Positions 8,527 to 58,801 of a DNA stretch of 64,000 bases are shown piece by piece. The translations under genes were made by a program, and so were the position numbers. The number at the start of each line of letters is the position of its first letter. Position 1 is the stretch's first letter. The notes under the pieces are model-generated. The model ran no database searches. It saw only the letters and a list, made by a program, of their open reading frames with translations, and was not told where the DNA came from. Origin of the DNA: an uncultured delta proteobacterium (GTDB taxonomy: Bacteria > Desulfobacterota > Binatia > UBA9968); NCBI GenBank assembly GCA_963727625.1, contig CAVSHR010000009.1:320001-384000 (forward strand), written 5' to 3'.

Positions 8527-11500
8527 TTACTTGGCACTCAGCTCGTAGATTCTTTGAAACATCGGAGCCTTGTCAAGGCTCGCGCGCAGTTCGGAATGCT
8601 GAACACTGGCCTTCATGTGCTCAATCACCGTTCGCCCGGCGGTAAACGCCCGGCGGGCTAACTCAGGCTTTTTCGTCTCGGCATAAAGCCCGCCCAATGC
8701 GGCATGAGTCTTCCAGAGCTGCGTAGGATTACCGATCGCCTGGGCGATCGCCAGAGCTTGGCGAAAGGCGTTTTCCGCCTCGTCCCAGTGTCGATGTCGT
8801 AAAGCGATCTCTCCCCGGAGCCGCCATGCCTTCACCAAGTATTTTTTAGATTGCGTGCGCGTGGCAATATCGAAAACGTGATCGCAAAATTCTTTGGCCT
8901 TCGTGTAATCCCCACGGACCAGCCAAAGATCGCCCAAGCTCGCGAACAGGTGAGTGGAGTAGCGCCAACGCATCCATTCGCTCGTTGCCGGGTTTTTCAC
9001 GAGGCGATGCACGCCGTCGAAAAATTCCTGTGCCAGCGTCAGATCGCCTCTTACGAGATAAATATCGCCCAAGTTGATCTCCGGATTGGCAATGGTCTCG
9101 GGGTCGCCGCGCTTGCGCGCACCCGCCGCGCCGGACCGGTTCAATTCGATGCTACGCTCTAGGTCGCCGCACTCCATGTAGAGCCATCCAAGACAATTGA
9201 ACAGCCGGTTGCGATTGACCTCGTCGCCCACTTTCGCGGCAATAGCCAGACCTTCCTCCATAGTCGCAAGAGCTTCGTCGTAGTGGCCGATGCCGGTGAG
9301 GGTCACGCCGCGAAAAAAAAGACCTTGGAGGAGCGGGAACAAGAAATTGTGTTGCTGCGCGATTTGCAAGGCTTCCTTCTGCAGGCGCAGCGCCTCGGCG
9401 TAATCCCCCGCCCAATTCTTGACAAAACCCCTGAAGTTCAGCGCAAACGATTGTCGAAAAATATCTCCGGCACGGCCGCTCACAGTCACGACGCTCTCGA
9501 ACTCGCGCGCTGCCTCTTCAAGTCTACCGGTGACCCCATAGACCATACCGAGTGTGAGTCGAGCACGACCCATGACGACTTCAGCATCCGTCTCTTCAGC
9601 GATCTTTATGGCCGCTTGCGACTCCGCCAGGGCCCGCTCGAAGTCGTGAGTCCAATGCGCGGCGAATCCCATCTCGGATAACGCAACTCCCTCGCCTACG
9701 CGATCGGCAGCGCGGCGCGCGAGAAGCAGCATGGACTCACTCTCAGCCCGTGAGCGCGCGAAATCACTAAGGATGAAATAGAGATTGGCCTTGGCCTGGT
9801 GAATGGCCATTATTATTTTCAGCTCCACTTGCGCGCCGAGATGGTCCACCGCCTCCAGGGCTTGATCGTACAAGTTGATCGCTTCGCGCGTGGCGAACGC
9901 CTTGGCCGCCTTGTCCGCCCCCTTTAGAAGATACTCCAGAGCCTTGGCCCACTCTTCGGCTCTCGAGAAGTGATGGGCGAGCATTTCATACTGCTCGGCG
10001 AGCCGGTCCGTATAGAGCTCCTCGATGGCGCGAGCGATGAGCAGATGGAGTTCCTTGCGCCGCTGGATCAGAAGCGAGTTGTAGGTCACCTCATGAGTCA
10101 ACGCGTGCTTGAACATGTAGGCCAGCTCGGGGAAGAGGCTCTTCTCGTAGATCAGCTCGATCGCCTTGAGCTCGCGCAAAAACTCCTCCGTTTGCTCGCG
10201 AATCTCCGCCAGACGGTCGACCAGACGCCGGGTAAATTCTCGGCCGATGACCGAGGCGAGTTGGAGGGTTTTCTTCGGCGCTTCCGCCAACCGATCGATC
10301 CGGGCCATGATGACGTCCTGGATCGTGTCGGGGACGAAGATCTCGTCAAGCCGCTTGGCAAGGACATAACGGTCGCCGCGCTTTCGAATGACGTGGATCT
10401 CCTGCAAAGATTTGATCACTTCTTCGACAAAGAAAGGGTTCCCTTCGGCTTTACGTGCCACCAGCGTGTTCAGTCCTTCCGGCACGGCCTCCGTAGACAG
10501 AATAGCTTTGCTCATTTGGTCACTGTCTGCGGCAGAGAGGCTGTCGAGTACAATCCGCGTATGATAGGTCCGTTCTCCGAAAGGATGCTGGTAGCCTGTC
10601 CGATAGGATAGGATCTGAAGAATACGGCTGGTCGGGATGCTGTCGGCCGAAAATAGCAGCGCCTCCTGCGTTGCCTGGTCTGCCCAATGGACATCTTCGT
10701 ATACGATTACCTGAGGGTGTACCTCAGCGGCTCGGACCACCAAGCGTTTAGAGCGCAGCGAAAATTTCTCCGCGCCGGAGCTGTGGATCCATACTCAGCA
10801 CCGCCGGGTCGCCAGGATCCACGGACAGAAGGGAGCGCAGATAAGGCAGAACCGGACGGAGATCTTCGCCGAGTCGGAGAACAGCCTTTTCGATCTTGGC
10901 CGCGATTATCTCTTCGGAGTCACCGTCCTCGATCCGGAAATTCGCGCAGCAGGTCGATCAAGGGATGAAATGCCATGGCGCGTCCAAAGGACATGGTCCG
11001 TCCCTCGCTCCAAGTCGCCTCATTGCCAAGCCTGCGACGAAACTCGAGCAGCAGCCGGGATTTGCCGATTCCGGCTTCGCCAACGACAAAGACCACCTGT
11101 CCATGTCCTCCCTTGGCTTTCTCAAAACAGTCGGCGAGGATTCGAAGCTCGGGTTCGCGTCCCACGAACGGGGTGAGCCCTCGCTCGGCTCCCACCTCGA
11201 GGCGGGTCCGAGCGACTCGGGCGGAGACCACATCCCAGGCCTGAACGGGTTCGGTCTTTCCCTTTAGAAACAGCCCGCCCAGGGGTCGGGTATGGAAGTA
11301 ACCCGACACCAAATGATGGGTAACATCAGAGATCACGACGTGCCCGCGGTCGGCGCTCTGCTGGAGGCGCGCTGCCACGTTGGTGGTGTCGCCGATCGCC
11401 GTGTAGTCCATTCGAAGATCGCTGCCAATGCTTCCGACCACAACCAAACCCGTGTTGATGCCCTGACGCACGTAAAAATCGATGCCGCGGCGGCGCTTGA

Positions 11501-12020
11501 GTTCGTCACCATAGGCTTCCAACGCCTGCCTGATGCCCAGCGCTGCATGGACGGCGCGCTGCGCATGATCCTCGTGCGCGATCGGCGCGCCGAAGAGAGC
11601 CATGATGCCGTCGCCGAGAAAATGGTTCACGGTGCCCTCGTAGCGATGCACCTCGCTCAACATAAGCTCGACCGCGTGGTTGATAAGACCGTGCATGTCC
11701 TCGGGGTCCAATCGTTCGGAAAGCGCGGTGGATCCAACGACATCGACAAAAAGCACACTGACCTGTTTGCGCTCTCCTTCCAGAGCGCTTTTGGAGCTTA
11801 AGATCTTTTCTGCGAGGTGTTTTGGAGTGTAGCTTTCGGGAGAACAGAATTGGGTCGCTGTCGGGCCGGCGCTGACGGATTGCCCGCAATGGAGACAGTA
11901 TTTTGCTTCCGGCGGTAGCTCAGTGCCACATGCGGAGCAGGCCAGACCAAGGCGGGCGCCGCATTCCAAGCAAAATTTCGCCTGTGGGGGATTCTCACGC
12001 TGACAGAGCGAACACCGCAC
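8527..12020 (-). pseudogene. Double zinc ribbon-adenylate/guanylate cyclase-AAA ATPase-TPR protein, interrupted by two frameshifts (~10943, ~10750)
   Basis: CSLC..FCLECG..CSACG; GDGIMALFGAP, GDTTNVAARLQ; GEAGIGKS; bridging frame NFRIEDGDSEEIIAAKIEK...GEIFAAL links the two ORFs; GTG 12020 with GGAGG. Confidence 0.85.
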
Positions 12021-12132
12021 GTCGGAACCTCCACCTGGTTGAAAACCGAACAAGAACAGGCGACTGAAATTAACTTACGGAAGCAGATGGGTCAAGCAAC
12101 CATGAGAACTTCGTACAAGAGGTTCTTTCCAT

Positions 12133-13794
12133 TTACTCTAAAACAGATTTTTTGTATTCGGTCCGCAGCTCCGACTGAAGCCGTCCCAAGCGATATTTTT
12201 TCCAATCGATAAACTTGCCGCAATCAGCCAGCGCCGGATGCACTTCCCGGATTTTGCGCCACATCTCCTGGCAGATAAACCGGTAGTCGGGATGGCCCTG
12301 CGGCATGGTGCGGAGCTCGCACATATGCAGCGCTTCGCGCAGGTTCATCTTCATGTACCAGCGAATTTTGTAGGCGAACGGCACCACGTACTGCGCCTCG
12401 CTCGGCAGATCGGCGTAAATGCGCTCGTACAGGGCCGCGGCGCGCTCCATGCAATCGTTGAATTCGTCTTTGAAGCCCGCCTCCTCAATCTCCGGCGGCC
12501 TGTCGTAGCCGTGCACGGCGGTGAAGTCCTGGCGCTCCTGGGTGAGAATCCGGTGGCGCTGCAAATCGCGGTAAAGGCCTAGATTGCCCAGGATGTCGAA
12601 GGTGTAATAGACGTTTTCGAATGGCCGGCGGAGTTTGTCGCGCCGGTGGCGCCGTTTGCCGAAATGCTCGGCGACAATCCTGTGCCGCTCATCCGCGCTC
12701 ATTTTCGCGGCAATTTGCCGGAGCTGTTCGAGCGGATGGCGGCCATGAGCGTAAAAAATCGCCGCGATGATTTTCTCTTCGGCGGCGCCGTCGTAATCGA
12801 TCAACGTCACCGGCTCGCTTGTGGCTAATGGGGCCACGGTTGCGAATTGAGCAGCCAGCGCCTTTGTCGCCGCGCCGGTGGCGACGAGATAGTCGTTGCG
12901 CTGCGCCCTTTTGATAAACGACGGAATCAGTTGATTGAGCTCGCCGTGCATGGCGTCACCCAATTCATTGATCTCGCCGAGATCGTGCGAATAAAACTTG
13001 CTGATCAGATACTCGAACGCCTGGCCGACGCCGAACATGCCGACATTGGTCAGCGTCGCCGCCGGCAGATAACTGCGCAGCACGTCGCACGCATGCGCGC
13101 GCACGGTGGCGCGGTACGCGGTCTCAGCCCAGCGCCGCAGCCGATCGTCTTTCTTGGCGTCGGCGTATGGCAGCGCTTTCCCCGTCGTCGGATCGCGCAC
13201 CTCCAATTGTTCGATGGGCAGCGCCCCGGCGATCGACGCCAACATCGGCTCCATCTGGCGCGAGTAAGTGTCGAAGAGCAGATTCATCACGGCGACATAG
13301 TCGTCGCGCCAGCGCGAAGCCATAATCTTGGGCTCGCGGTAGAAAAGATAATTTCCGCCAGAGTCTTTCTGGTCGAAGCGGACGTAGCGCGTCGATTTCT
13401 CCAGCGGCGCGATGCCGATGCGCGCGTCTTCGAGCAGCTTCGCCGCGACGTTGGAAACATTCTCACAGGCGAGATGAGCGCCGCCCAACTGGGCGACGGA
13501 ATCGTCGCCGTAACCGACGAGAACGCGTTCGAAAAACGCCCGCGCTTTTTTTAGCGCCGCGCTGTCATCACTCGCGCTCGACGACCCGCCCAGCAGTTCT
13601 TTCAAGCCGAGCTCCGGATCGCCGAGAAATTCGTCTAGAAAAGTCCGCCGCAAACTTTTTGTCGAGCGGCTGTAGCGCGAGAACAGCGCGCCGGCCACTT
13701 CCTGGGGCAATCTGAGGCCGAAAGTCGAGCGGTCAAGGTTGGTAAAGAAAGGGGCGAGACGGATTTTTTCTTCGGCAGTGAACTCCGCGGTCAT
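12133..13794 (-). CDS. thyX: FAD-dependent thymidylate synthase, long tandem-domain form
   Basis: GYGDDSVAQLG, EKSTRYVRF, YRDLQRHR, ELRTMPQGHPDYR. Confidence 0.85.
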   Translation of the reverse strand: MTAEFTAEEKIRLAPFFTNLDRSTFGLRLPQEVAGALFSRYSRSTKSLRRTFLDEFLGDPELGLKELLGGSSSASDDSAALKKARAFFERVLVGYGDDSVAQLGGAHLACENVSNVAAKLLEDARIGIAPLEKSTRYVRFDQKDSGGNYLFYREPKIMASRWRDDYVAVMNLLFDTYSRQMEPMLASIAGALPIEQLEVRDPTTGKALPYADAKKDDRLRRWAETAYRATVRAHACDVLRSYLPAATLTNVGMFGVGQAFEYLISKFYSHDLGEINELGDAMHGELNQLIPSFIKRAQRNDYLVATGAATKALAAQFATVAPLATSEPVTLIDYDGAAEEKIIAAIFYAHGRHPLEQLRQIAAKMSADERHRIVAEHFGKRRHRRDKLRRPFENVYYTFDILGNLGLYRDLQRHRILTQERQDFTAVHGYDRPPEIEEAGFKDEFNDCMERAAALYERIYADLPSEAQYVVPFAYKIRWYMKMNLREALHMCELRTMPQGHPDYRFICQEMWRKIREVHPALADCGKFIDWKKYRLGRLQSELRTEYKKSVLE

Positions 13795-13885
13795 GCGCAA
13801 AACTTCCTCACAGAGAGCTGTCCGGCCATTCTATTCAGTTCTCGGCCAATAACAAGGCGCGTTTGGCGCCGAAACATCGAATTGT

Positions 13886-15037
13886 TTAGCGCAGCGGCTC
13901 GGGTGCGCAGACGGCGCCGACTAAGGAATTGAGCCAGCGGCCGTCGCCGGCGCACAGGCGGATCAGCGGATCGAGCAGCGCCGGCCGATAGATGGCAAAA
14001 CGCATCAACGCGTTCAACGCCAGTCGGCGGCGGAAATGTTGATGGCACAGTCGCTCATAGCGTTTGAGGAAATCGGCTGACAAATCGCCGCGGGCGAATG
14101 CGGCATCGAGGGCCTCGGCGGCGAGCATGCCGCTGCGCATGGCGAAGTAAATTCCTTCGCCGGTGACCGGCTCGCTCACCCGCGCCGCGTCACCCACGAG
14201 CAAAGCGCGTTCGCTGAAGCAGCGCCGCTTGGGAAAATAAACCGGATAGGCCGAACGGGCTTGGGAAATGTCCCGGCTGCGAGCGAGTATAGCTTTGAGA
14301 TAGGGATTACGCGCCAGCCATTTCTCCAGCAAATATTGCCGCACGCCGCCGCGAGGCAGCCGGCGTCGCTCGATTGCCAAGCAGAGATTCATCTCGCCAT
14401 CGCCGAGAGCTATCAGTCCGGCATAGCCCCCTGGAAAAAGATGGATTTCGACTTTCCCTTGCGCCGCGCCGGGACACTGCAATCGCAGCTGAAAGCCGAC
14501 CGAGCGGCCGGTCATCGCCGTCGGCCGGTTCACACCGAGCTGCTCGGCCACCCAGGAGTTGCGCCCGTCGGCGCCGATTAGAACCTTCGCCTGCCAACTC
14601 TCGCCGGCGCCGGTTGTGAGTTGCCAGCCTTGAGCAATCTTCGCGAGATGCTCGATCCGGCTACCCAGGCGAATTTGCGCGCCCGAGCTCGCCGCGCGGT
14701 CGACCAGCGTTTGATCGAACTGCGCGCGGCGCATGCCGAGACCGAAGGTTGCGGCGCCATTTTCGTCGGGAAAGCGCGCCTCGGCTTGATTGCCCGAATC
14801 CGTAGTGACCCGGAAGCCGGCCACCTTCGCATGGGGCTGAGCGAGGATTTGTTCTTCGACCGCCAATTGGCGCAACACCGGCCGATTGATCGGATTGATG
14901 AAATCGCCGCAGAGTTTTTCCCGCGGAAAGTTTTGCTTGTCGATCAGCGCGACTGCGAAGCCTCTTCTCGCCAAGGAAATCGCCGCCGCCGAGCCGGCCG
15001 GGCCGGCGCCGATAATCGCGACATCGACGTCTCGCAT
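13886..15037 (-). CDS. NAD(P)/FAD-dependent oxidoreductase (geranylgeranyl reductase-like)
   Basis: GAGPAG, FPREKLCGD, GADGRNS, VGDAA...PVTGEGI. Confidence 0.88.
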   Translation of the reverse strand: MRDVDVAIIGAGPAGSAAAISLARRGFAVALIDKQNFPREKLCGDFINPINRPVLRQLAVEEQILAQPHAKVAGFRVTTDSGNQAEARFPDENGAATFGLGMRRAQFDQTLVDRAASSGAQIRLGSRIEHLAKIAQGWQLTTGAGESWQAKVLIGADGRNSWVAEQLGVNRPTAMTGRSVGFQLRLQCPGAAQGKVEIHLFPGGYAGLIALGDGEMNLCLAIERRRLPRGGVRQYLLEKWLARNPYLKAILARSRDISQARSAYPVYFPKRRCFSERALLVGDAARVSEPVTGEGIYFAMRSGMLAAEALDAAFARGDLSADFLKRYERLCHQHFRRRLALNALMRFAIYRPALLDPLIRLCAGDGRWLNSLVGAVCAPEPLR

Positions 15038-47373: not shown

Positions 47374-48051
47374 TTAGAGATCGTCCCAGCGTTGCAGCAA
47401 ACCTAGCGTGGATTTAACCCGCGCCGCCGCCGCGGTGCCTAAATGGCGCAGCCGCTCGAGATCGGCAGGCGTATCGACGTCGAACCAGACCGGCAGTTGG
47501 CGCGTCGGTATGTTAAACGCGGCAAGCTTGGCGAGGGTCCGGGCCATCACTTGGTCATGACTCCAGGTCATATTGCGAAAAATTTCCAGCACCGGATCGT
47601 TCATGCCGACGAGATAGTAACCGCCGTCTTGGCTCGGTCCCAAAACCACTCGAGCCGACGGCGCAGCCAGGAACCCGAAGGCCTGGTCTAAATAGTCCAA
47701 GGGAAAAGCTGGCAAGTCGCTGCCGATGAGAACAATGCTCCGATGGCCGCGTGTCCACAGATCGGTAAACACGGCCGCCATACGGACGCCGAGATCTAGT
47801 CCGCGCTGCGCGATCAAGTGAAACTTGGCCCCGGCGATGGCGCTCATCAAAGACCCGGCATTGTCAGGGGCGTAGCAAACATAGCGCTCCACGCCGCTCA
47901 GCTCCTGCAACTGATCGAGCAGATCCAAAAGCAAGGCGCGGCTGAGTTCCGCCGCCTGTGCGCTGGTTAACGGCGGCACCAGGCGAGTCTTAACCGTACC
48001 GGCGATCGGCGCCTTGGCCATCACCGCCAGTGCGTTAGTGTGTGTCGGCAT
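47374..48051 (-). CDS. TIGR04282-like (DUF2064) arsenosugar-cluster transferase
   Basis: MAKAPIAGTVKTRL, QRGLDLG.RM, IGSDLP, LGPSQDGGYYLVG, DVDTPADL. Confidence 0.88.
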   Translation of the reverse strand: MPTHTNALAVMAKAPIAGTVKTRLVPPLTSAQAAELSRALLLDLLDQLQELSGVERYVCYAPDNAGSLMSAIAGAKFHLIAQRGLDLGVRMAAVFTDLWTRGHRSIVLIGSDLPAFPLDYLDQAFGFLAAPSARVVLGPSQDGGYYLVGMNDPVLEIFRNMTWSHDQVMARTLAKLAAFNIPTRQLPVWFDVDTPADLERLRHLGTAAAARVKSTLGLLQRWDDL

Positions 48052-48712
48052 AGAATTGCTTTAAGCGCGCCGGCGACACGCCGGCCAGGTAGAGAAGCTT
48101 GAGCGTCCACATTCGGAGCATCGTGCGCCATACTCCGTCGCTCTCCCAGCGCCGCGCCGAGGTCACCGCCCGGCTGCGCAGACAAGCCACGGCGCCGAGG
48201 CGCTTCAGCGTCCGGCAAAAAGCGATGTCCTCCATCAAAGGGATGTCGGGATAGCCGCCCATGCGCTCGAAGACTTCGCGGCGCACGAAAATGGCCTGAT
48301 CACCAGTGCAGACTTTGGTGGCCCGCGAGCGGTAATTGATCATGGCGCCGACGAGCTTGAGCATCCAGTGGGCGCCCTCCAGCTCGACGTCGAAACGGCC
48401 GCCAAGGCAGCGCGGATCGTTCAGCGCCGCTTGGATGTCATGAAACGCCGAAGGCGGCAAGCGTGTGTCGGCATGCAAGAACAGCAGGACCTGGCCGACT
48501 GCCCGTGCCGCGCCGCAATTCATTTGCCGGGCGCGGCCGCGCTCGGAGGTAACGATTTCGACGGCGAATTGCCGGCAAATTTCCACCGTTCGATCCCTGC
48601 TGCCGCCGTCAACGACGATGGTTTCCTGAGGACCGAGCGCGCTCAAGGCACGCAGCGACGATGCAATTGACTTTTCTTCGTTGAGGGCGGGAATAATGAC
48701 GGAGATCTTCAT
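48035..48712 (-). CDS. TIGR04283-like GT2 glycosyltransferase
   Basis: SVIIPALNE, VDGGSRD, GRARQMN.GA, FLHADT, GDQAIF, LMED, TSARRW. Confidence 0.9.
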   Translation of the reverse strand: MKISVIIPALNEEKSIASSLRALSALGPQETIVVDGGSRDRTVEICRQFAVEIVTSERGRARQMNCGAARAVGQVLLFLHADTRLPPSAFHDIQAALNDPRCLGGRFDVELEGAHWMLKLVGAMINYRSRATKVCTGDQAIFVRREVFERMGGYPDIPLMEDIAFCRTLKRLGAVACLRSRAVTSARRWESDGVWRTMLRMWTLKLLYLAGVSPARLKQFYADTH

Positions 48713-48800
48713 CGCCAAAGTCGTGGTCGAGAGTATCGCTGATGCTGTGTCCCGCCAAGGCCGTGGAAAACATCCACTCCGTCAGCGGAACTAAGCTTGC

Positions 48801-49640
48801 TTATGGTTTACCGTCCGCGCCGTTCAGTCGCCAGTCGTAATCATGGGTTAGACCGCCGTTGTATTTCTCCAACGCGTCGGCCAATTTCGGATTGGCGTAC
48901 TTTTGCCAGTGCTCCATCAAACCCTCGGCGTCGCGACCAAAATCCTCCTGAAACCAGACGTAGATGCTCGACACCTTAAGGTGATTATTTTGGATATCCA
49001 CACCGCGCGGATGATTGATGAATTCGCTCGCGCCTTTTTCCAATAACGCTTCTGTGTTCTCGCCGGTAAAAGCCAGCGGTTGAAGATTGGGACAACCGAG
49101 GCTGGCGCAGTTCACCGCGTAATGCACCCGGTTGTCTTTCCAGATCGGCCTGAGAATGCGATGCTCGATATCGTCGAGCGACAGTTTTTCCTCTTCGACG
49201 CTGAAAAGCTTCGCGCCCCAAGGTCCGCGCGTTAAAAATCCCGGCGAGATATTGATGTCGCGAATCGATGCCACCGGGTAGCGCGACAGGACCACGTCCA
49301 CGGTCACAGCGTTGTACACGTTGATCCAGTAGGCTTTTTGCTCGGCGCGGTTGTAATTCGAGATCGCCACGCCGCGCATGGCGTCGAGGTAGCCTTTCAA
49401 TAAATTTACACCCTCCGCGGCCGCGGCTTGATAGCGCACGCGATTGACGCCGGACGGATGCGGCGCGACGACGAATTGCTTGAGAAATTTATCCCAGGCG
49501 CCATGATCGATTTTGGCCGTGCTCGCCGGATCGTGCTTTTGCCAGCGCGGCCACAGATCGGCCTTCGGCGCCGCCTGTGCCATAGCGAAGCCAAGCCCCA
49601 GCGCAACAATCGTCAAAACTCCAATCAAAATTCTTTTCAT
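48801..49640 (-). CDS. Secreted DUF547 protein
   Basis: Signal peptide; AYWINVYNA, LDDIEHRILR, RVHYAVNCASLGCP, YDWRLN. Confidence 0.88.
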   Translation of the reverse strand: MKRILIGVLTIVALGLGFAMAQAAPKADLWPRWQKHDPASTAKIDHGAWDKFLKQFVVAPHPSGVNRVRYQAAAAEGVNLLKGYLDAMRGVAISNYNRAEQKAYWINVYNAVTVDVVLSRYPVASIRDINISPGFLTRGPWGAKLFSVEEEKLSLDDIEHRILRPIWKDNRVHYAVNCASLGCPNLQPLAFTGENTEALLEKGASEFINHPRGVDIQNNHLKVSSIYVWFQEDFGRDAEGLMEHWQKYANPKLADALEKYNGGLTHDYDWRLNGADGKP

Positions 49641-49679
49641 GAATACGCCTGACTCCTTGCCCTTGGCGCCTCACCGTTC

Positions 49680-51923
49680 CTACCGCCGCCACGCTAGCCA
49701 TTGCAAGAAAAGCTTCTTCACCGTTGGCGTCAGCTTCGTGCGCATATACGCGTCGCCGATCTTGCGCAGCGCTTCGACTTGCGTCGGATAAGAATGAATC
49801 GTCGAGGAAAGCACGCCGACGCTCTGCTTGGCGACCATCGCCAGCGTCACCTCCCCGAGCATCTCGCCGGCGTGGCGCGCCACGATCGTGCCGCCGAGAA
49901 TCTTACCAGTTTTTCTGTCGTAGTGAACGCGGGCGAAGCCGTCGTCCTCACCGTCGAGCACCGCCCGGTCGACGTCATGCAGCGGCTGGGTGATCGTCGC
50001 GATATCGAAGCCGGCGGCGCGGCCGTCTTTCTCGTAATAACCCACGTGGGCGATTTCCGGGTCGGTATAGGTGCACCAGGGGATCACCAGATCCGTAACT
50101 TTACGCCGCGCCAGGAAGAGCGCATTGGCGATCACGATGCGCGCCATCGCGTCGGCAGCATGGGTGAATTTATAACGCGAGCAAATGTCGCCGGCGGCAA
50201 AAACTCGCGGGTTGGAGGTACGCAGCCGCTCATCCACGTGAACGCCGCGCGTCCAGAAATCGATCCCCGCCGCATCCAAGCCGAGATTTTCGAGATTTGG
50301 CGCGCGCCCGACGGCGACCAAGATTGCGTCGCAATCGATCGTCGCATCGCGCCCGCCTGCCGTGATCGACAAACTTTTAGCGCCGTTGTGCGCTTGCGCC
50401 TGGCGAATCTCGGCGCCGGTGATAATCCGCACGCCGTCCTTTTCTAGAGAGTTACACACGATCGCCGCAGCGTCGCTATCTTCTTTGGGCAAAATCGCGC
50501 TGCCATGAGTCATTAAGACAACTTCACTGCCAAAGCGTTGAAAAGCCTGGGCGAGCTCACAGCCGACCGGCCCCGCACCGATTACCGCCAGGCGGCGCGG
50601 CAACTCGGTCAGCGCAAAGATCGTTTCGTTGGTGTAGAAACCGGCTTCGCTCAAGCCGGCGATCGGCGGCATGGCAGCGCGCGCGCCGGTGGCGATTACG
50701 GCGCGGTGGAAACTAAGGCGCTTGCCGTCGACTTCCACCGCGTCTGGGCCGGTGAAGCGGCCATTGCCGATATAGACGTCGATGCCGAGACTGCGAAAAC
50801 GTTCGGCGGAATCATGGCCGCTGAGATCCGCGCGCAGTTTGCGCATCCGTTCCATGGCAGCGCTGAACGCCACCTGCGGCTCGCTCGCGAGACGAACGCC
50901 GAACTCTTGGCCGTTGCGCGCCTCATAGACCGCGCGCGCCGCGCGAATGATTCCCTTTGACGGGACGCAGCCGCTGTTGAGACAGTCGCCGCCCATAAGA
51001 TTGCGCTCGATGAGCGCCACCTTGGCGCCGAGACCGGCGGCACCGGCAGCGCTGACGAGCCCTGCTGTGCCGGCGCCGATAACGAGCAAATTATATTTTC
51101 CTATGGGCTTAGGGTTGTTCCACTTGGGCGGGTGGCAATTTTCGATCAGCCGGCGATCGTGCACATCATCGACCAGCAGCATGTCGCTGAACGGCGTCGG
51201 TTTGTGATCGGCGTCCAAGCGCGGCTTTGCCATTACCACACCGCCTTCGTTGGATTGCTCGGCTTCACGCAAAGCTTTGCGCGCGACGCGCGTCACCAGC
51301 ACGACCACCGCAAACGTCGCGGCCAGGCCGACGTACTTTAAAAGTTGCTGATAGAAATCGGTTGAAGCCGGCTGGCCGGCCAGCGCGTCGCGCGCCGCCG
51401 CGCCGATATAAACGAAGAGAAACGTCCCGGGCAGCATGCCGAGAAGATTTGCCAGGACATAAGCGCCGGTTCGCACGGCGGTTAGGCCGAGTAGATAATT
51501 GAGCAGCACGAAGGGAAACACCGGACTCAAGCGGGTGAGAAAAACCATTTTGAAGCCCTGCTGGCCGATCGCTTGATCGAGGGAACGAAACTTCGGTTTG
51601 GCTTGGGCCCATTGGGTGACTCTTTCCCGAAGAAATGTGCGGGCTAGCAGGAACGCGCAAAGCGCGCCGAGATTGGCGCCTAGGAAGACGACTAGAAACC
51701 CGATGGACAGTCCAAATAAACCACCGGCGGCAATGGTCAATGCGCTCCCTGGAACGAAGAGTACGGTGGTCACTACGTAAACAATCGCAAAAATCACCGG
51801 ACCGAGCGCGCCCAGACTTTGGATGTAAATTTCCAGGGCTTCTAGCCACTGTCGAACCGGAAGAAATAAAAAACCGACAGCGACAATCACGACCGCTAAA
51901 GCGATGAAAACAGACTTCAACAT
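49680..51923 (-). CDS. DedA/VTT (TVP38) membrane domain fused to a mercuric-reductase-like flavin disulfide oxidoreductase
   Basis: N-terminal LTRLSPVFPF..LNY; C-terminal GAGTAG, GGDCLNSGCVPSK, HSYPT; no MerA C-terminal Cys-Cys. Confidence 0.87.
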   Translation of the reverse strand: MLKSVFIALAVVIVAVGFLFLPVRQWLEALEIYIQSLGALGPVIFAIVYVVTTVLFVPGSALTIAAGGLFGLSIGFLVVFLGANLGALCAFLLARTFLRERVTQWAQAKPKFRSLDQAIGQQGFKMVFLTRLSPVFPFVLLNYLLGLTAVRTGAYVLANLLGMLPGTFLFVYIGAAARDALAGQPASTDFYQQLLKYVGLAATFAVVVLVTRVARKALREAEQSNEGGVVMAKPRLDADHKPTPFSDMLLVDDVHDRRLIENCHPPKWNNPKPIGKYNLLVIGAGTAGLVSAAGAAGLGAKVALIERNLMGGDCLNSGCVPSKGIIRAARAVYEARNGQEFGVRLASEPQVAFSAAMERMRKLRADLSGHDSAERFRSLGIDVYIGNGRFTGPDAVEVDGKRLSFHRAVIATGARAAMPPIAGLSEAGFYTNETIFALTELPRRLAVIGAGPVGCELAQAFQRFGSEVVLMTHGSAILPKEDSDAAAIVCNSLEKDGVRIITGAEIRQAQAHNGAKSLSITAGGRDATIDCDAILVAVGRAPNLENLGLDAAGIDFWTRGVHVDERLRTSNPRVFAAGDICSRYKFTHAADAMARIVIANALFLARRKVTDLVIPWCTYTDPEIAHVGYYEKDGRAAGFDIATITQPLHDVDRAVLDGEDDGFARVHYDRKTGKILGGTIVARHAGEMLGEVTLAMVAKQSVGVLSSTIHSYPTQVEALRKIGDAYMRTKLTPTVKKLFLQWLAWRR

Positions 51924-52082
51924 TCGATGACATCGACGCTGTAGAGTAAATGTGGGCACCTTGCGGTTTCAAATAATCGACCCTGGTGGAGCGATGCCTT
52001 TGCGGCTAACTCACAGGGTAGATCCAGTGTGTAAACCCTCCAGTTTGTTATTACGGACAAATCCAGGTTCCGCCTTATCGTC

Positions 52083-52107
52083 AACGGCCAAGAAGCCAAT
52101 TAGTTCC
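52083..52107 (-). promoter_or_regulatory. Putative ECF-sigma promoter upstream of the DedA-reductase block
   Basis: Minus strand GGAAC-taattggcttcttggc(16)-CGTT. Confidence 0.55.
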
Positions 52108-52197
52108 GTGTTGTGACGGCTCCTAGTTTGATTCAGTGATTTTGCCGCTCGCGAAAACGCTCGTCCTTCGGGTCTCGCGGTGCCTCGGACTGTTTGT

Positions 52198-53910
52198 CTA
52201 CGGAAGAAGTCGCCCTTGCCAGGAAAGCCGAGCGTCGTGGCGCCGTTGCCACTTTAGGGCTGGGACGCAATAGCGCGCTTGCTCGCCGACAGCCTTTAGG
52301 ATCAGCGAATTGATCGACTTATTGCCTTGAAAGAAATGCTCGCGGTAACTGCCGTCGCCGAGAAATCCGTCGGCCCGGTTAAATAGATTCACCCGGAGTT
52401 TGTTGCTTGGCAGATGGTTCTTGCCATACAGGAGATCGCGGAAAGCGGACGGCATCCAGGGGAAAGAAGCATAGAGGGCGCGGATTTCCGCGGCAGCGCG
52501 GTCGATTTCGCACTCATCATCGGGGTTAACCTGCTCGATCAGCGTGTCGATTTTTTCCTGAAGCTGGAAGAAGGGGACAAAACCGCCACCGGCCAACTTG
52601 AGACCGCGCAATTGAGCCAGATAATCGGCGCGGGTTCTCGAGTACAGGCGAGCCATGTTGAGTTTAAGATATTCGAGATAGGCGCCTAATAGCCATAAAA
52701 TGGAGTACACCGACCAGAGTTTGTAATTCGCCCAAGACTTATACGAGTTCGCCGCCAGGCGATCATTCATTTCAACGTAGCGCAGAGTCATTTCCTCAAG
52801 AGGGGCGAATGCCTCCCTGCTGTAATCACCGGTCTGGTGCGCCTTTAGAATCAAATCGGCGGCCAGAATCACACCCATGTGGGTCAGGTACAAACCTTTC
52901 GAATAAAGCGGATCGATAAAACCGGCGGCGTGCGCTAACAAACAAAAGCGATCGCCCACGACGTGCCGCGCCGAATATTGCAGGCGATCGGAGCGTATCC
53001 AAGGACGGACGGCGCGGGCGCGCTTGAACTGCCCGCGAAGATCGGGAAATTGACCGATGAACGCAAAAAATTCTTGCTCAGGAGTAAGATCGGCGCGCAG
53101 CGGGTAAATGCGCGGATCGAGTTGCAAACCCACGCTACATAGAGGATTCGTAGCTTGGGCGTGATTATTGAACGGGATCACCCAGAGCCAGCCGCCTTTG
53201 AAGAGGTGATGCAGCGTCCCTTCACAAAGCCGAAACGGATGACCAAATTGCTCGCGCGAAGCGCCGACTTCGTTAAAACAGGGGACATCGACCATGTGGG
53301 TGTAAATGGTCCGGCTATGGGTCTTTAAGTCGCGGTGCCGCCAAGCGAGTTTTTCGGCTAGCATCGACTTCATGCCTCCCGCGTCGACAAGATACTCGGC
53401 TCGATAGCTCTGCTTATCGGTGGTCAGCTCGACTCCATCGGGCGCCAGGGCGACATCCCGCACCGGAGTACCCTGCAAGATGTCCACTCCGTACGAAATC
53501 GCGATGGCGGTGAGCAGGTAATCTGAATCCTGACGGTAAAGGTGCATCTCATGCCCGTACGGCAATCTGGGGATAACCGCCTGCAAGCTTTTTCGCCAGT
53601 CCTGGCGTTCGCCCGGCTTGTGATACAAGAAGCCGAAGTGCCGCTTTACGCCGTGCGAGGTGCCGACGAGGGAGTAGTAATTTTCCGAGCTGAAGTAGGC
53701 CAGCTCGGGGACGTCATAAAATTCCGCCAGGGCGCGCATCGTTTCGGACGTCTCCAGGATCATTGATTCACCGATTGTAAAACGTGGATGCACGCCTGCT
53801 TCGAACGCGATCACGGACAATCCCTGTCGCGCCAAAACGGCGGCCAGCGTCGAGCCGCCAATCCCGGTACCGATAATTGCCACGTCGTATTTTGAAGTCG
53901 AATTATTCAT
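52198..53910 (-). CDS. Flavin-dependent halogenase (PrnC-like)
   Basis: [23 protein letters not shown] (catalytic Lys region), WLWVIP (WxWxIP), FIDPLYSKG. Confidence 0.8.
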
Positions 53911-54139
53911 CGCGCCCGTTTTGCGTGACCATTGTTTTTGCGAACGGGGAATTTTTATCCTCTACGATGCCTTGTCCGTCACCGAAGCCGGCAGCAAGAG
54001 TGAAATCGATCCGAAACCAAACACCGCTGTCGGAGCGCGTCGCACATTTGTAGGCGCGTGAGCGTCAATCTGCTCAGATAGAACACCTTCTGTCCCGCTC
54101 GCAATCAGCATCGGCTTTTACGGTCGCGATCAGTAAGAC

Positions 54140-55261
54140 CTAAGCGAAGCTTCGCAACAGGATAAAACTTGCTGCTGAAAGTAGCGCGGCGGCGGGGAGA
54201 GTCAACACCCACGCTAATAGAATCGTCCGGATCGTCTGCCATTGCGCCCGTCCATTGGCGATCCCGATGCCGAAGAGCGCACCGCAGGACACATGGGTCG
54301 TCGATACCGGCATGCCCCATTTGGAGGCGAAAATTACCAGAAAACTAGTGACCAGATTAGCCCAGAGTCCGTGATCGGGTTCCATGCCGGTAATTTTCTT
54401 GCTGACCGTCTGCGCCACCGCTCTGGCGTTGAGTAAGCCGCCCAGCGCCATCGTCGCGGCGACCAGTTGGATGGAAAAGCGCAAATTCAACGTCCCGGCG
54501 ACCAGCCCGAGTGCGACGATCTTCGGCGTATCGTTGAGCCCGCGCGCGAAGCTGACGGCGCCCGCGCTAAAAAAATGACCGGCGTCGAGCAGCTTCCGGC
54601 CATTGATACCGAGTATCTTCCCTGACTGCGGCTGGGCACAAACCGCTTCGCGATCCACGATCACGCGTAAACCGGGCGTTGTCTCGACGAAGGAGAGGCC
54701 TTCGGCAGAGACCATGGCCGGAGTCCCGGCTTCGACGCATAAGCAATTTTCCCGGTTGAGACCGGCTCGCTTGAGGACGAAGCTCAGTAATGGAAAGCCC
54801 AAACTGGCGATCGCCACGGCACATAACGGACTGATCAATAGCGGCATCATAAATTTTACCGCCAGCGCCTTGAAGCCGAGGTCGAGGCCGACTGCGACCA
54901 GGCCGGTGCCGAAAAGCGCGCCGGTCAGACTATGGGTGGTCGAGATCGGCATGCCGAACTTGGTGGCGAGCATGACGGTCAACGCCGCGCCCAACACCAC
55001 GGCAGCGATAAACGGCTCGGACTCGGCGAGTTGCGCCGGCACCAATCCCTTGCCCTGAAAGACTGAAATCAGCTTGGTGGCGAGAAACAATGCGGCCAAG
55101 GATCCCGCGAAAGTCGTGATCGTCGCCCAGCCAAGCGCCCTGCGGTAATCCGTCGCGCCGCTGCCGAAGAGCGTCGCCACGCCTTTGAAATTATCGTTGG
55201 CGCCGTTGGCATAAGCGACAAAAAGTGTCGCGCCGATTACCATGACCGTCAAATCAAACAT
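54140..55261 (-). CDS. PiT-family inorganic phosphate/anion transporter with a Cys-containing insert
   Basis: NGANDNF, MPISTTH, GLNDTPK, MPVSTTH; loop ENCLCVE...VCAQ. Confidence 0.88.
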   Translation of the reverse strand: MFDLTVMVIGATLFVAYANGANDNFKGVATLFGSGATDYRRALGWATITTFAGSLAALFLATKLISVFQGKGLVPAQLAESEPFIAAVVLGAALTVMLATKFGMPISTTHSLTGALFGTGLVAVGLDLGFKALAVKFMMPLLISPLCAVAIASLGFPLLSFVLKRAGLNRENCLCVEAGTPAMVSAEGLSFVETTPGLRVIVDREAVCAQPQSGKILGINGRKLLDAGHFFSAGAVSFARGLNDTPKIVALGLVAGTLNLRFSIQLVAATMALGGLLNARAVAQTVSKKITGMEPDHGLWANLVTSFLVIFASKWGMPVSTTHVSCGALFGIGIANGRAQWQTIRTILLAWVLTLPAAALLSAASFILLRSFA

Positions 55262-55277
55262 CTCACGTGCACCTCAA

Positions 55278-56237
55278 TCAGACCAACGAGCCACCGCAGC
55301 TGCTGCCTGCGCCCGCCGTGCAGGCGTAGCAGTGATCGCCGGTGATAATTTCTCGCTGAGCGACTTGCTCCGGAGTCAAAGAAGAGATCGTCAAACGCGC
55401 GCCGCTGCCGTCGCTGAGCGGCAGATCAAGCATCTGGTTAAAGTCGCAGTCGTACACCGAGCCCTCCCAGCCGACGCTGATCAAATTGCGACACATCACC
55501 TGCTCCAGCGTCGCGGCGTTGAAGCTGCTTTCCAGTAATTCCAAATAGCGGTCGTACTCGCCACGCAACTTGAGATGAATCGCGTAGCGGGTGATCGGCA
55601 TGTTGGTTAGGCAGTAAAGATGATTGAACATAATGCCGAACTTTTCAGCGAGCATTCGTGCATAGTCCTGCTCCAACTTCGCTTGCGGCGGCGGCAAGTG
55701 CGGGCCGACCGGATTGTAGACCAGATTCAAGACCAGGCCGGCGTCGGCTTGGCCGTAACCGATTTCGTTTAACCGCTGCAGGGCACGGATGCTGGCATCG
55801 AAAGTCCCCTTGCCGCGCTGTTTGTCGACGTTTTCTTCGGAATAACAGGGCAAGGAACAAATCAGCTCGACCCCATGCTCTTTAAAAAACGCCGGTAGAT
55901 ATTCCTTACCGGGCTCGAAAATGACGGTTAGATTGCAGCGGTCCATCACGTGGCGGCCGAGGCGCCGCGCTGCTGTGACTAAATAATCGAAATCGGCATG
56001 CAGCTCCGGCGCGCCGCCGGTGAGATCCAAGGTTGGAATCTCGCTGCGCGCAAGAAAACCCAAGACTGCCTCGACGTTCTCCCGGCTCATCATCTCCTTG
56101 CGCGCCGGCCCCGACTCGACGTGGCAGTGAATGCAGGCGAGATTGCAGTAACGTCCCAGGTTGACTTGAAGAACGTCGACCGCGCGGCGCTTAAGGCTCC
56201 CGCCGCACTCAGAAAGTTTTTCGACGAAACTTTGCAT
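55278..56237 (-). CDS. arsS: Arsenosugar biosynthesis radical SAM protein (TIGR04167-like), Cys form
   Basis: CNLACIHCHV, DLTGGAPE, YDCDFNQML, C-terminal HCYACTAGAGSSCGG. Confidence 0.88.
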   Translation of the reverse strand: MQSFVEKLSECGGSLKRRAVDVLQVNLGRYCNLACIHCHVESGPARKEMMSRENVEAVLGFLARSEIPTLDLTGGAPELHADFDYLVTAARRLGRHVMDRCNLTVIFEPGKEYLPAFFKEHGVELICSLPCYSEENVDKQRGKGTFDASIRALQRLNEIGYGQADAGLVLNLVYNPVGPHLPPPQAKLEQDYARMLAEKFGIMFNHLYCLTNMPITRYAIHLKLRGEYDRYLELLESSFNAATLEQVMCRNLISVGWEGSVYDCDFNQMLDLPLSDGSGARLTISSLTPEQVAQREIITGDHCYACTAGAGSSCGGSLV

Positions 56238-56272
56238 AGTGACGCGAGAGGAGTTGATTTTTATCGGTACCG

Positions 56273-56305
56273 TTTTTAATTTTCAAATTTTCAATTCTTA
56301 ATTTC
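56273..56305. repeat. AT-rich 7-bp tandem repeat (TTTCAAT-like)
   Basis: ttttaattttcaaattttcaattcttaattt between the methyltransferase and arsS. Confidence 0.5.
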
Positions 56306-57508
56306 CTACGGGCAGCAATTCGAGCCCGGTCCGCAAACACTGCCGGATAATCGAGTGACGTTGAACTCAACGCCTTTGGTCTCGCGGGGGTGGCGTTTGT
56401 GATCGCGTGCGCAGTCGAACCGGCCGGCGTTTTCCGGTGCGATTTCCTCGCGCGGCGGCACCAGGATGAACTGGCCGGCATAGGGTGGCTGCGCATAGAG
56501 TTTGAACGTTTTGTCGCACACCGCCATACGCGCGCCACGTTCCAGCGTATGGCCGTCGTCATCGACCACTTGCTTCCAGGGGCCTCGGTAAATGACCGCC
56601 TGGTCACGCTCGATGCACGGCCCTTCCTTGCCCTTGTAGGCGGTCACGGTGACGGCGCGAAACTCGATGCCTTCGACGGTCTGATAAGGTTCCGAACTGA
56701 AGTCCTCGATCTGGATGCCGTGGAACTTGGCTTTTTCGAAAGCGCGGAGAAATTCCTCCTCTTGGAAGGCGCCGGAGACGCAGGCGCTCCAGAGACTCGG
56801 GTCCTTGGCTAGATGATCCGGCACCGGTTCGTCGCTGACGATGTCGGAAATCGCGACTCGGCCGCCGCGCTTGAGCACGCGGTACATCTCGGCGAACAGC
56901 GGCTTTTTATCCTCCGGCCGCACCAGGTTGAGCACGCAGTTGGAAACGATCACGTCGATGGAGTCATCGGCGATCAGCGGCTGCTCGCGCCGAATTTTGT
57001 TTTGGAATTCTTCCAAGCGCGCCAGATCGGCGACCGAGCCGATTGGATTGCGCCGCAAATAACGGTCGATTAATTCTAGATTGGTTTGCAGGTCTTGAAT
57101 CTTGCCCCGACGAAACTCGACGTTGTGGTAGCCGAGTCGGTCGCCGATGGACTTGCGGTATTTGCGCGCCAACTCCAGCATCGGCGGATTGAAGTCGATG
57201 CCGATGACTTTGCCCTGGGCGCCGACGATCTGGCCGATGATGTAGCATGCTTTGCCGCTGCCGGAGCCCAGGTCCAAAACCGTTTCGCCTCGATGAATAT
57301 AGCGCGACGGATCGCCGCAACCGTAGTCTTTTTCGATAATCTCGTCAGGGATAACGGTCAGCAAAGATTTGTCATAACTCACCGGCAGGCAGAGACAAGC
57401 CTCGACTTCTTCTGCAGCGTTGCCGTAGCGCTGTAATACTGCCGTTTCGGGGTTAAATCTCTTGCTTGAAATTGTGTCGTTGTTTGAGCCGTTCAAATCC
57501 ATATCCAT
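56306..57508 (-). CDS. Arsenite methyltransferase-like SAM methyltransferase with an extended C-terminus
   Basis: CLCLPVSY, YGCGDP, LDLGSGSG, SNCVLNL, WSACVSGA, C-terminal CGPGSNCC. Confidence 0.8.
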   Translation of the reverse strand: MDMDLNGSNNDTISSKRFNPETAVLQRYGNAAEEVEACLCLPVSYDKSLLTVIPDEIIEKDYGCGDPSRYIHRGETVLDLGSGSGKACYIIGQIVGAQGKVIGIDFNPPMLELARKYRKSIGDRLGYHNVEFRRGKIQDLQTNLELIDRYLRRNPIGSVADLARLEEFQNKIRREQPLIADDSIDVIVSNCVLNLVRPEDKKPLFAEMYRVLKRGGRVAISDIVSDEPVPDHLAKDPSLWSACVSGAFQEEEFLRAFEKAKFHGIQIEDFSSEPYQTVEGIEFRAVTVTAYKGKEGPCIERDQAVIYRGPWKQVVDDDGHTLERGARMAVCDKTFKLYAQPPYAGQFILVPPREEIAPENAGRFDCARDHKRHPRETKGVEFNVTRLSGSVCGPGSNCCP

Positions 57509-57615
57509 CTGCCTTCCTCGTAACGCGATTGGCTTTAATTGCACCAGCTTGGCTCAATCCAAGCCGGCGGACAAGTAAGCCCAACATCGCCTGCGTCCGC
57601 TTTGGCTGTTGATTA

Positions 57616-57690: not shown

Positions 57691-58801
57691 TTAGGAATTC
57701 ACCGGCTCATCGGCCTGCATCAGGTACGCTTCTATGAATTGATCGATATCGCCGTCGAGCACCGCATCCGCGTTGCCGACTTCGACGTTAGTTCGGTGAT
57801 CTTTAACCATGCGGTAGGGATGAAGCACATAGGAACGGATCTGGCTGCCAAAGCCGATGTCCTTCTTGGTTTTGTGGTAGGTCTCCATTTTCTCTTTCTG
57901 CTTTTCGATTTCGAGCTCGTAGAGACGTGATTTTAAAATTTTCATCGCCATGGCGCGATTTTTATGTTGCGAGCGCTCGTTTTGACAGGCTACGACGATG
58001 CCGGTGGGAAGATGGGTCAGGCGCACGGCAGAGTCGGTCTTGTTCACATGCTGGCCGCCGGCGCCGCTCGAACGATAGGTATCGACGCGCAGGTCGGCTT
58101 CGTCGATCTCGACTTTGATATCGTCGTCCACTTCCGGATAGACAAAGACTGAAGCAAACGAAGTATGGCGCCGCGAGTTGGCGTCGAAAGGCGAGATCCG
58201 CACCAGGCGGTGAATACCGGCTTCGGCCTTTAAATAGCCGTAGGCGTAGTCGCCCTCCACCAGAAAGGTCACGCTTTTTACCCCCGCCTCTTCACCAGGC
58301 TGATATTCGAGAATTTCTTTCCGGTAGCCGCGCCGGTCGCACCAGCGCAGATACAGACGCAAGAGGATTTCGGCCCAATCCTGCGCCTCCGTGCCGCCGG
58401 CGCCCGGATGGAGCGTGACGATGGCATTGCGCCGGTCGTCCGGCCCGCCGAGCAACTGGGTAAGCTCGGTCTGCGCCATCTCCTTGCCGACGGCAGCGAC
58501 TTTGGCGACGGCCTCGGTCAATGCCTCGTCGCTCTTTTCCGCTTCGGCCACGTCGAGAAAAAAACGCGCCTCTTCGAGGTCGGCGTGATGTTTCGTCCAT
58601 GCGTCGATGACGCCTTTGAGAGCGGACTGTTCCTTGAAAATCGCCTGAGCTTTTTCCGCGTCGGTCCAGAAATCGGGTTGAGAGGTGATCTTGTTTAGTT
58701 CTGCGATCCGCTTTTGCTTGGTCTCGACGTCAAAGACGCCTCCGCAAAAGCTCGAGCCGCTCTTCCAAGTGGGTCAATTCCTCGCCGGTTTCTTCTAACA
58801 T
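57691..58801 (-). CDS. prfB: Peptide chain release factor 2 with programmed +1 frameshift
   Basis: ATG 58801; codon 23 in CGGAGG-CGT-CTT-TGA-C (CTTTGAC at 58735-58729); SPF and GGQ motifs. Confidence 0.96.

Follow-up and report, generated by a model that had tools for sequence, protein, structure and literature searches.

The window analysed here, a stretch of 64,000 nucleotides from an uncultured delta proteobacterium of the Binatia lineage UBA9968 (Desulfobacterota; GenBank assembly GCA_963727625.1, contig CAVSHR010000009.1, positions 320,001 to 384,000), contains an arsenic gene cluster at 47374-57508 in which a gene for a flavin-dependent halogenase (Hal) is embedded. The cluster consists of eight co-oriented genes, as a preliminary description of this DNA had claimed, all on the minus strand, including those for an ArsM-like S-adenosylmethionine (SAM) methyltransferase and the radical SAM enzyme ArsS. 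ArsS cassettes with a DedA protein fused to a pyridine-nucleotide disulfide reductase (PNDR) are known, as is the DedA-PNDR fusion itself; the halogenase insert is new. Hal is very probably not a component of the arsenic cassette. The explanation favoured here, with moderate confidence, is a laterally acquired halogenase that is tied to a reductase which it has in common with the arsenic cassette, the cassette being otherwise ordinary.

Hal (P0001, 570 aa; 52198..53910, minus strand) reaches 40 bits on the Pfam profile Trp_halogenase PF04820 (cut-off 21) in scans with Pfam and NCBIfam hidden Markov models, which were also used to identify the other genes. Over about 410 residues (5-416) it aligns to the solved structures of the tetracycline 7-halogenase CtcP (7xgb; E 3.6e-106) and the phloroglucinol halogenase PltM (6bza; E 4.4e-86). 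In these enzymes GxGxxG is the N-terminal FAD-binding motif, and WxWxIP distinguishes halogenases from flavin monooxygenases. Hal carries GTGIGGS at residues 14-20, its K89 aligns to the lysine in SHGQKSNFGF of CtcP, the catalytic residue by which the hypohalite is carried or directed, and its WxWxIP motif aligns to GWMWIIPF of CtcP; the halogenase motifs quoted previously, GVKRHFGF and GGWLWVIPF, are both present in the translation. An alignment of 26 family members, drawn from at least four phyla and with L197 and L154 left out, has a mean column identity of 73%, and no variation occurs in it at G14, G16, G19, K89, W241, W243, I245 or P246. With all motifs intact, Hal is predicted to be a real flavin-dependent halogenase of the CtcP/PltM type; a look-up in the ESM Atlas returned 'halogenase family' only.

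Hal shares the fold family and motifs of CtcP (7xgb/7v0b), PltM (6bza) and PrnC and is free-standing like them, with no adjoining carrier protein. It differs in that it falls into a clade apart, which is unusually conserved (58-87% identity between phyla) and in which a clade-specific C-terminal region is conserved as far as about residue 527, and in that its gene context is redox- and lipid-flavoured, polyketide, pyrrolnitrin or phloroglucinol biosynthetic genes being absent from its surroundings. The label 'PrnC-like' that had been given to it is nevertheless fair, because the PrnC study treats CtcP and PltM, the nearest solved structures to Hal, as close structural relatives of PrnC (PMC10770391). 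The PrnC residues named there are K97, E129 and E60; Hal K89 was placed via the CtcP alignment instead. As described before, there is no flavin reductase gene near Hal, and five Flavin_Reduct genes are located on other contigs of the genome. The G+C content at third codon positions (GC3) of hal is 0.651, the lowest in the cluster (others 0.68-0.76).

That a halogenase is not a usual part of such cassettes, as had been suspected, is borne out by genome comparisons within and beyond the genus. Hal is absent from 14/14 ArsS loci retrieved from relatives in the genus (one of these, L121, stems from the unpublished genome G005; the count without it is 13/13), and an orthologue was present in two of the 25 genus genomes searched, namely the genome of the window (G000) and G022, the next best match having 58 bits. 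In an even draw of 301 genomes across the phylum, ArsS scores above its cut-off in 110, and Hal was detected at E<=1e-60 in a single one, again G000, so that the 109 other ArsS-bearing genomes run without Hal. Most genomes are incomplete metagenome-assembled genomes (MAGs), and absence therefore denotes 'not found among those searched'. Outside the genus, 135 distinct Hal loci were compared (the 80 best genome and 80 best metagenome loci, with near-identical copies collapsed and the genus left out), and ArsS, ArsM or PiT were found in none of them (0/135). Neighbour counts in these loci are lower bounds, because only 62 of the 135 extend at least 3 kb to both sides of Hal. The contrast between zero ArsS and 63 loci with the commonest neighbour within 3 kb is clear all the same.

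Hal occupies the same slot, between the PiT and DedA-PNDR genes, in six loci: the window, L013 of genome G022, and the metagenome contigs L128, L129, L131 and L134. The six ArsS-embedded halogenases form one clade (support 100/99), which is sister to a proteobacterial group (99/98), and the insertion would go back to a single lateral entry of Hal in one sub-lineage. In L131 and L134, a small methyltransferase gene lies directly upstream of hal. The operons of the proteobacterial sister group combine a LysR gene with genes for DUF1330, short-chain dehydrogenase/reductase (SDR) and AhpC-like proteins, an optional methyltransferase, and Hal. The joint presence of methyltransferase and Hal in these operons, as in L131 and L134, points to the entry of one methyltransferase-halogenase unit and a later loss of the methyltransferase. 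A tblastn search of the PiT-Hal gap of the window with the L134 methyltransferase (E up to 10) retrieved no remnant.

The Hal-bearing loci are scattered in the ArsS tree, requiring at least three changes, and likewise in the PiT tree. In the DedA-PNDR tree, the window, L129 and L134 fall into one clade (100/99), joined by the Hal-less locus L119. Synonymous divergence (dS) among the window, L013, L128 and L129 is 0.44-1.0 for Hal versus 0.84-1.6 for ArsS, and the two genes are alike against L134. The ratio of nonsynonymous to synonymous divergence (dN/dS) of Hal among the Hal-bearing loci, 0.08-0.13, indicates purifying selection. Between hal and the DedA-reductase gene, 244 bp of the gap align with 68% identity to the corresponding gap of the Hal-bearing L129. 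In blastn searches, the gaps flanking hal match only the Hal-bearing L129 and L013; seven Hal-less relatives gave no match in their PiT-DedA or ArsS-DedA gaps, and neither insertion boundaries nor repeats could be defined. In our reading, recombination into this one slot may have carried Hal, as an accessory gene, from relative to relative, and selection would maintain it there.

Directly downstream of hal, the DedA-PNDR fusion gene extends from a start at 51959 (GTG) or 51923 (ATG) to 49680 on the minus strand. Its product joins a DedA (VTT/TVP38) domain (VTT_dom, 96 bits) to a class-I PNDR of the NF004991 type (765 bits, cut-off 620) that is also recognised by Pyr_redox_2 (207 bits) and Pyr_redox_dim. 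A pyridine-nucleotide disulfide oxidoreductase is the commonest fusion partner of COG0398 DedA proteins (PMC10127716), and the architecture of VTT, Pyr_redox_2 and Pyr_redox_dim is the same as in these TVP38/TMEM64-type fusions. The difference lies in the context, since here the fusion is encoded in an ArsS cassette and its reductase subfamily also occurs beside Hal in ArsS-less Chloroflexota. By eye, the reductase displays the redox disulfide GGDCLNSGC (CxxxxC) and, near the C-terminus, HSYPTQVE (His...Glu), and it consequently looks like a disulfide reductase and not like MerA. More specific identities were rejected: the protein scores 379 for MerA (cut-off 454), with no MerA-style C-terminal cysteine pair visible, 231 for RclA (cut-off 740) and 230 for HOSCN reductase (cut-off 650).

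The NF004991-type gene beside hal is the only one in the 6.6-Mb genome G000. Of the 301 genomes in the phylum draw, 42 have a gene of this type, 31 of them together with ArsS; by our own reading of the coordinates, the distance to ArsS is at most 10 kb in 12 of the 110 ArsS genomes. The NF004991 reductase is thus a recurrent, although not universal, neighbour of ArsS. It also recurs beside Hal: in all five Chloroflexota genomes checked (5.4-6.9 Mb), the sole NF004991 match (E<=1e-100) adjoins Hal, and in the same five genomes no ArsS was found and no TIGR04283 protein scored above cut-off. The Hal-adjoining PNDRs of L015, L049, L071 and L092, the four that were scanned, reach 735-769 bits on NF004991. 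Among the 135 Hal loci, a class-I PNDR is encoded in 45 (31 within 3 kb), with at least 45% identity to that of the window in 10, the four scanned loci included, and DedA in 32 (22 within 3 kb). The other frequent neighbours are a CDP-alcohol phosphatidyltransferase (68 loci, 63 within 3 kb), a SelL-related/AhpC-TSA_2 protein (34 and 33), a YdjM-like membrane protein (33 and 25), the methyltransferase (24 and 18) and an SDR (20 and 14).

Whether Hal and the DedA-tethered reductase are functionally coupled seems an even call, and a number of observations weigh against the preferred explanation. A PNDR lies within 3 kb in only 31 of the 135 Hal loci and is at least 45% identical to that of the window in only 10, whereas the far commoner neighbour, the CDP-alcohol phosphatidyltransferase (63/135), does not occur in the window. 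The nearest outgroup operons (L018, L130 and L154) have neither PNDR nor DedA in their available flanks, and we know of no class-I disulfide reductase that acts as a partner of a flavin-dependent halogenase. The slot between ArsS and DedA-PNDR is itself variable, as PiT is found in 5/14 relatives' loci and L116 carries a different insert, so that the adjacency could reflect a recombination-permissive site. The incompleteness of most MAGs and the short flanks of many Hal loci act in the same direction, and the location of all six known loci of the embedded Hal clade inside an ArsS cluster may even mean that, in this lineage, Hal is connected with arsenic chemistry. Halogenase-reductase pairs reportedly bind each other weakly, to judge from the title of one study.

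Several of these points agree with a pure passenger, that is, a halogenase that has landed in a recombination-permissive slot, has no tie to its neighbours, acts on an unrelated substrate and draws on housekeeping flavin reductases. The 5-kb phosphoesterase/ABC transporter insert of L116, the absence of PNDR and DedA from the sister operons, the five Flavin_Reduct genes elsewhere in the genome, the lowest GC3 of the cluster and the wide gaps beside hal (229 bp and 238/274 bp, versus 16-82 nt or overlaps elsewhere in the cluster) are all expected for such a gene. A passenger, which the preliminary description had offered as its second option, is nearer the truth than a halogenated arsenical. 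It is too simple, however, because six diverged loci have kept Hal in one and the same slot, at a dN/dS of about 0.1, and because the NF004991 reductase lies directly downstream. A chance landing next to the sole gene of this type in a 6.6-Mb genome is improbable, and the same adjacency recurs in five of five Chloroflexota and in further loci. The pure passenger is therefore considered unlikely, although it remains the strongest of the alternatives. The first option of that description, namely that Hal was recruited into the arsenic pathway, with a halogenated organoarsenical or arsenosugar aglycone as the product, did not survive the survey and is very improbable. Two of the observations that the description itself had named as refuting this option were made, since Hal homologues show no linkage to ArsS elsewhere and close relatives do not have Hal at this site. 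In its favour, Hal has the same orientation as its neighbours and is enclosed by ArsS/PiT on one side and the rest of the cassette on the other, and six of six known members of its clade are found in ArsS clusters and are under purifying selection. Yet ArsS or ArsM is present in 0/135 other Hal loci, Hal is missing from the 109 further genomes of the phylum draw that have ArsS and from the cassettes of 14/14 genus relatives, and five Chloroflexota genomes combine Hal with the same reductase type although no ArsS was found in them. Moreover, CtcP, PltM and PrnC act on phenolic or pyrrolic carbons, which the known intermediates of the ArsS pathway do not appear to offer, and our literature search found no paper that joins a halogenase with an arsenosugar.

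A bolder variant would have Hal and the DedA-tethered NF004991 reductase form an undescribed, membrane-associated halogenation module that is plugged into the ArsM-ArsS pathway and gives rise to a halogen-bearing or halogen-dependent organoarsenical, such as an arsenolipid or arsenosugar aglycone with a halogen. It has little probability in our estimate; if true, it would for the first time connect halogen and arsenic natural-product chemistry through enzymes. Alternatively, rather than being a C-H halogenase of a natural product, Hal could produce hypohalite or haloamine in a controlled way, as part of a thiol-redox module of halogenase, peroxiredoxin-like protein and disulfide reductase; thiol-bound arsenicals may, in this lineage, come into contact with the oxidant or the redox relay. 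Thiol-redox neighbours do recur in Hal loci (SelL-related/AhpC-TSA_2 in 34/135, AhpC/TSA in the proteobacterial operons, and class-I disulfide reductases), the reductase has the CxxxxC disulfide and the His...Glu C-terminal motif, and a mean column identity of 73% across phyla is, to our knowledge, unlike that of substrate-diversified tailoring halogenases. On the other hand, the WxWxIP and lysine motifs are those of ordinary C-halogenating enzymes, the reductase is far below the RclA (231 vs 740) and HOSCN-reductase (230 vs 650) cut-offs, and we are aware of no precedent. The chances of this reading are slim.

According to the preferred explanation, that of a laterally acquired halogenase tied to the reductase, the ordinary cassette of the genus would comprise the ArsM-like methyltransferase, ArsS, an optional PiT, the DedA-NF004991 reductase, DUF547, TIGR04283 and TIGR04282. 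One sub-lineage would have gained Hal laterally, initially accompanied by a small methyltransferase, the insert lying immediately upstream of the DedA-reductase gene. Hal would halogenate a free, electron-rich, non-arsenical small molecule with the help of O2, halide and FADH2, the last probably delivered in trans, and it would depend functionally on the membrane-tethered disulfide reductase that it has in common with the arsenic cassette. ArsM and ArsS would keep making arsenicals of the 5'-deoxy-5'-dimethylarsinoyl-adenosine (DDMAA) type independently of Hal. The identities of the genes, the restriction of the insertion to one lineage, the missing linkage to ArsS elsewhere and the recurring adjacency to the reductase are observed; that Hal is coupled to the reductase, and what kind of substrate it takes, is our own reading of the genes.

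These considerations have practical consequences. The idea of a halogenated arsenical is probably wrong, and a costly chase is spared. Context-based annotation had read the DedA-reductase pair as a helper of the arsenic pathway; its recurrence beside an unrelated halogenase family, in genomes in which no ArsS was found, suggests that it is probably a general membrane redox module for different chemistries. The wider Hal clade is large and orphan, spanning Chloroflexota, Pseudomonadota, Cyanobacteriota, Deinococcota and the lineage of the window, and its context is stable (CDP-alcohol phosphatidyltransferase, peroxiredoxin-like, YdjM-like, methyltransferase and SDR). A literature search, conducted mostly at title and abstract level, found neither the clade nor its gene context described, and both appear undescribed, so that the clade offers a defined starting point for biocatalysis and for the search for its substrates.

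The arsenic genes proper are at the upstream end of the cluster. The ArsM-like gene (56306..57508, minus strand) begins at 57508, as annotated before, with an ATG that is preceded by the Shine-Dalgarno sequence GAGGAAGG, the reading frame being open up to a GTG at 57544. The gene identities of the preliminary description proved correct. The ArsM-like protein stays under every NCBIfam ArsM cut-off: 360 vs 500 on NF040538, 188 vs 263 on NF008823, and 125 vs 400 on the arsenosugar-type NF038099. It is thus not a curated equivalog. It nevertheless aligns to the solved ArsM 4kw7 (E 8e-32), with an insert of about 30 residues between two aligned stretches, and the cysteines of YGCG, SNCV and ACVSG align; from what is known of CmArsM, we take these three to be the As(III)-binding positions. 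ArsS (55278..56237, minus strand; TIGR04167, 447 bits, cut-off 300) consists of Radical_SAM and DUF3641 (PF12345, 184 bits) domains and a Cys-rich C-terminal tail, and its radical SAM motif CNLACIHC corresponds to CxxxCxxC (C31xxxC35xxC38). Roughly one ArsS match in three from the phylum draw contains a single in-frame TGA, which fits selenocysteine forms and the family name 'radical SAM (seleno)protein ArsS'; the ArsS of the window has cysteine and no in-frame stop.

ArsS adenosylates trivalent dimethylarsenic, DMAs(III), to DDMAA (PMC13598754). Methylation by ArsM-like enzymes, followed by adenosylation of DMAs(III) to DDMAA by ArsS, is the established part of the pathway, while the transferases, DUF547 and DedA-PNDR may have cassette roles that are suggested by gene context. 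The cluster resembles the ArsM-ArsS arsenosugar pathway of the cyanobacterial model in that ArsS, TIGR04283 and TIGR04282 score above their cut-offs and an ArsM-like methyltransferase adjoins. It differs in that this methyltransferase is not an arsenosugar-type ArsM and that PiT and the halogenase lie between ArsS and the reductase; in the sources consulted, the ArsS step is the one that has biochemical support. Title- and abstract-level searches for TIGR04283, TIGR04282, TIGR04167 and DUF547 found nothing on the make-up of the cassette.

ArsS is above cut-off in 21 of 31 genomes of the genus. All 14 relatives' loci retrieved contain ArsM, ArsS and DedA-PNDR, five contain PiT, and nine have prfB upstream. 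DUF547, TIGR04283 and TIGR04282 genes, followed by transketolase, are present in this order in 13 of the 14, with a GH15 gene intervening in some. In L116 (7811-12724; genome G008), the slot between ArsS and DedA-PNDR holds, instead of Hal, a 5-kb insert that encodes a metallophosphoesterase, an ABC ATPase with TOBE domain, an ABC permease and a 419-aa open reading frame (ORF); the slot thus seems to collect accessory and transport genes. In the Hal-bearing ArsS locus of L134 (5566-10803), two DedA-PNDR fusion genes flank a DUF3047 gene. Six relatives' loci, L115, L118 and L123-L126 (G014, G043, G018, G045, G019 and G003), contain genes that match in several frame-shifted pieces, affecting one or more of ArsM, ArsS and DedA-PNDR, and others in some. 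These six genomes are assembled into few, long contigs, and long-read indel errors account for the frame-shifts just as readily as real pseudogenes.

The remaining genes of the cluster, all on the minus strand, comprise a PiT/PHO4-family anion transporter, a variable accessory gene (54140..55261; PF01384, PHO4, 207 bits), and, downstream of the DedA-PNDR gene, a DUF547 protein (48801..49640; PF04784, 86 bits), a TIGR04283-family glycosyltransferase of the GT2 type (48035..48718; 273 bits, cut-off 182) and a TIGR04282-family (DUF2064, CofC-like) transferase (47374..48051; 191 bits, cut-off 134), the last two overlapping by 17 nt. The gaps beside hal, put at about 230 and 275 bp in the preliminary description, measure 229 bp on the PiT side (53911..54139) and, on the side of the DedA-reductase gene (51924..52197), 274 bp to the ATG at 51923 or 238 bp to the GTG at 51959. 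The junctions away from hal are 16-82 nt long or overlapping, as calculated from the cluster coordinates. Between 47000 and 58000, 7 promoter-like sites were counted, versus 4.6±1.9 in shuffled sequences, and 18 terminator-like sites, versus 13.5±3.2. Among the sequencing runs searched, no RNA run with this sequence was listed, and the best DNA runs share only 0.05-0.16 of its sequence words.

By profile matches, the cluster is flanked by prfB upstream and by a GH15 trehalase-like gene and transketolase downstream. The gene prfB, for release factor 2 (RF2), at 57691-58800 on the minus strand, resembles a classical programmed +1 frameshift gene. Its long ORF (58551-57691) matches the RF2 model from position 77 on only, and a CTTTGAC sequence is located upstream on the same strand (58735-58729).

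In Chloroflexota, Hal belongs to a recurrent module (e.g. in L032, L033, L042, L079 and L090, at about 10001-14000) that consists of Hal, the CDP-alcohol phosphatidyltransferase, the SelL-related protein and the YdjM-like protein. The phosphatidyltransferase is inositol-phosphate-transferase-like and the SelL-related protein is peroxiredoxin-like. An extracytoplasmic function (ECF) sigma factor and a small ORF are encoded divergently upstream, where pentose-phosphate genes (glucose-6-phosphate dehydrogenase, 6-phosphogluconolactonase and 6-phosphogluconate dehydrogenase) are also often found; the literature search returned no description of this module. On the metagenome contig L135 (1417-8837), hal is divergent from genes for DUF547, a GT2 glycosyltransferase, a 462-aa radical SAM protein, a GNAT protein, an ORF and a lycopene-cyclase-domain protein. 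This contig represents a second, ArsS-free meeting of Hal with DUF547 and a TIGR04283-like glycosyltransferase (37% identity).

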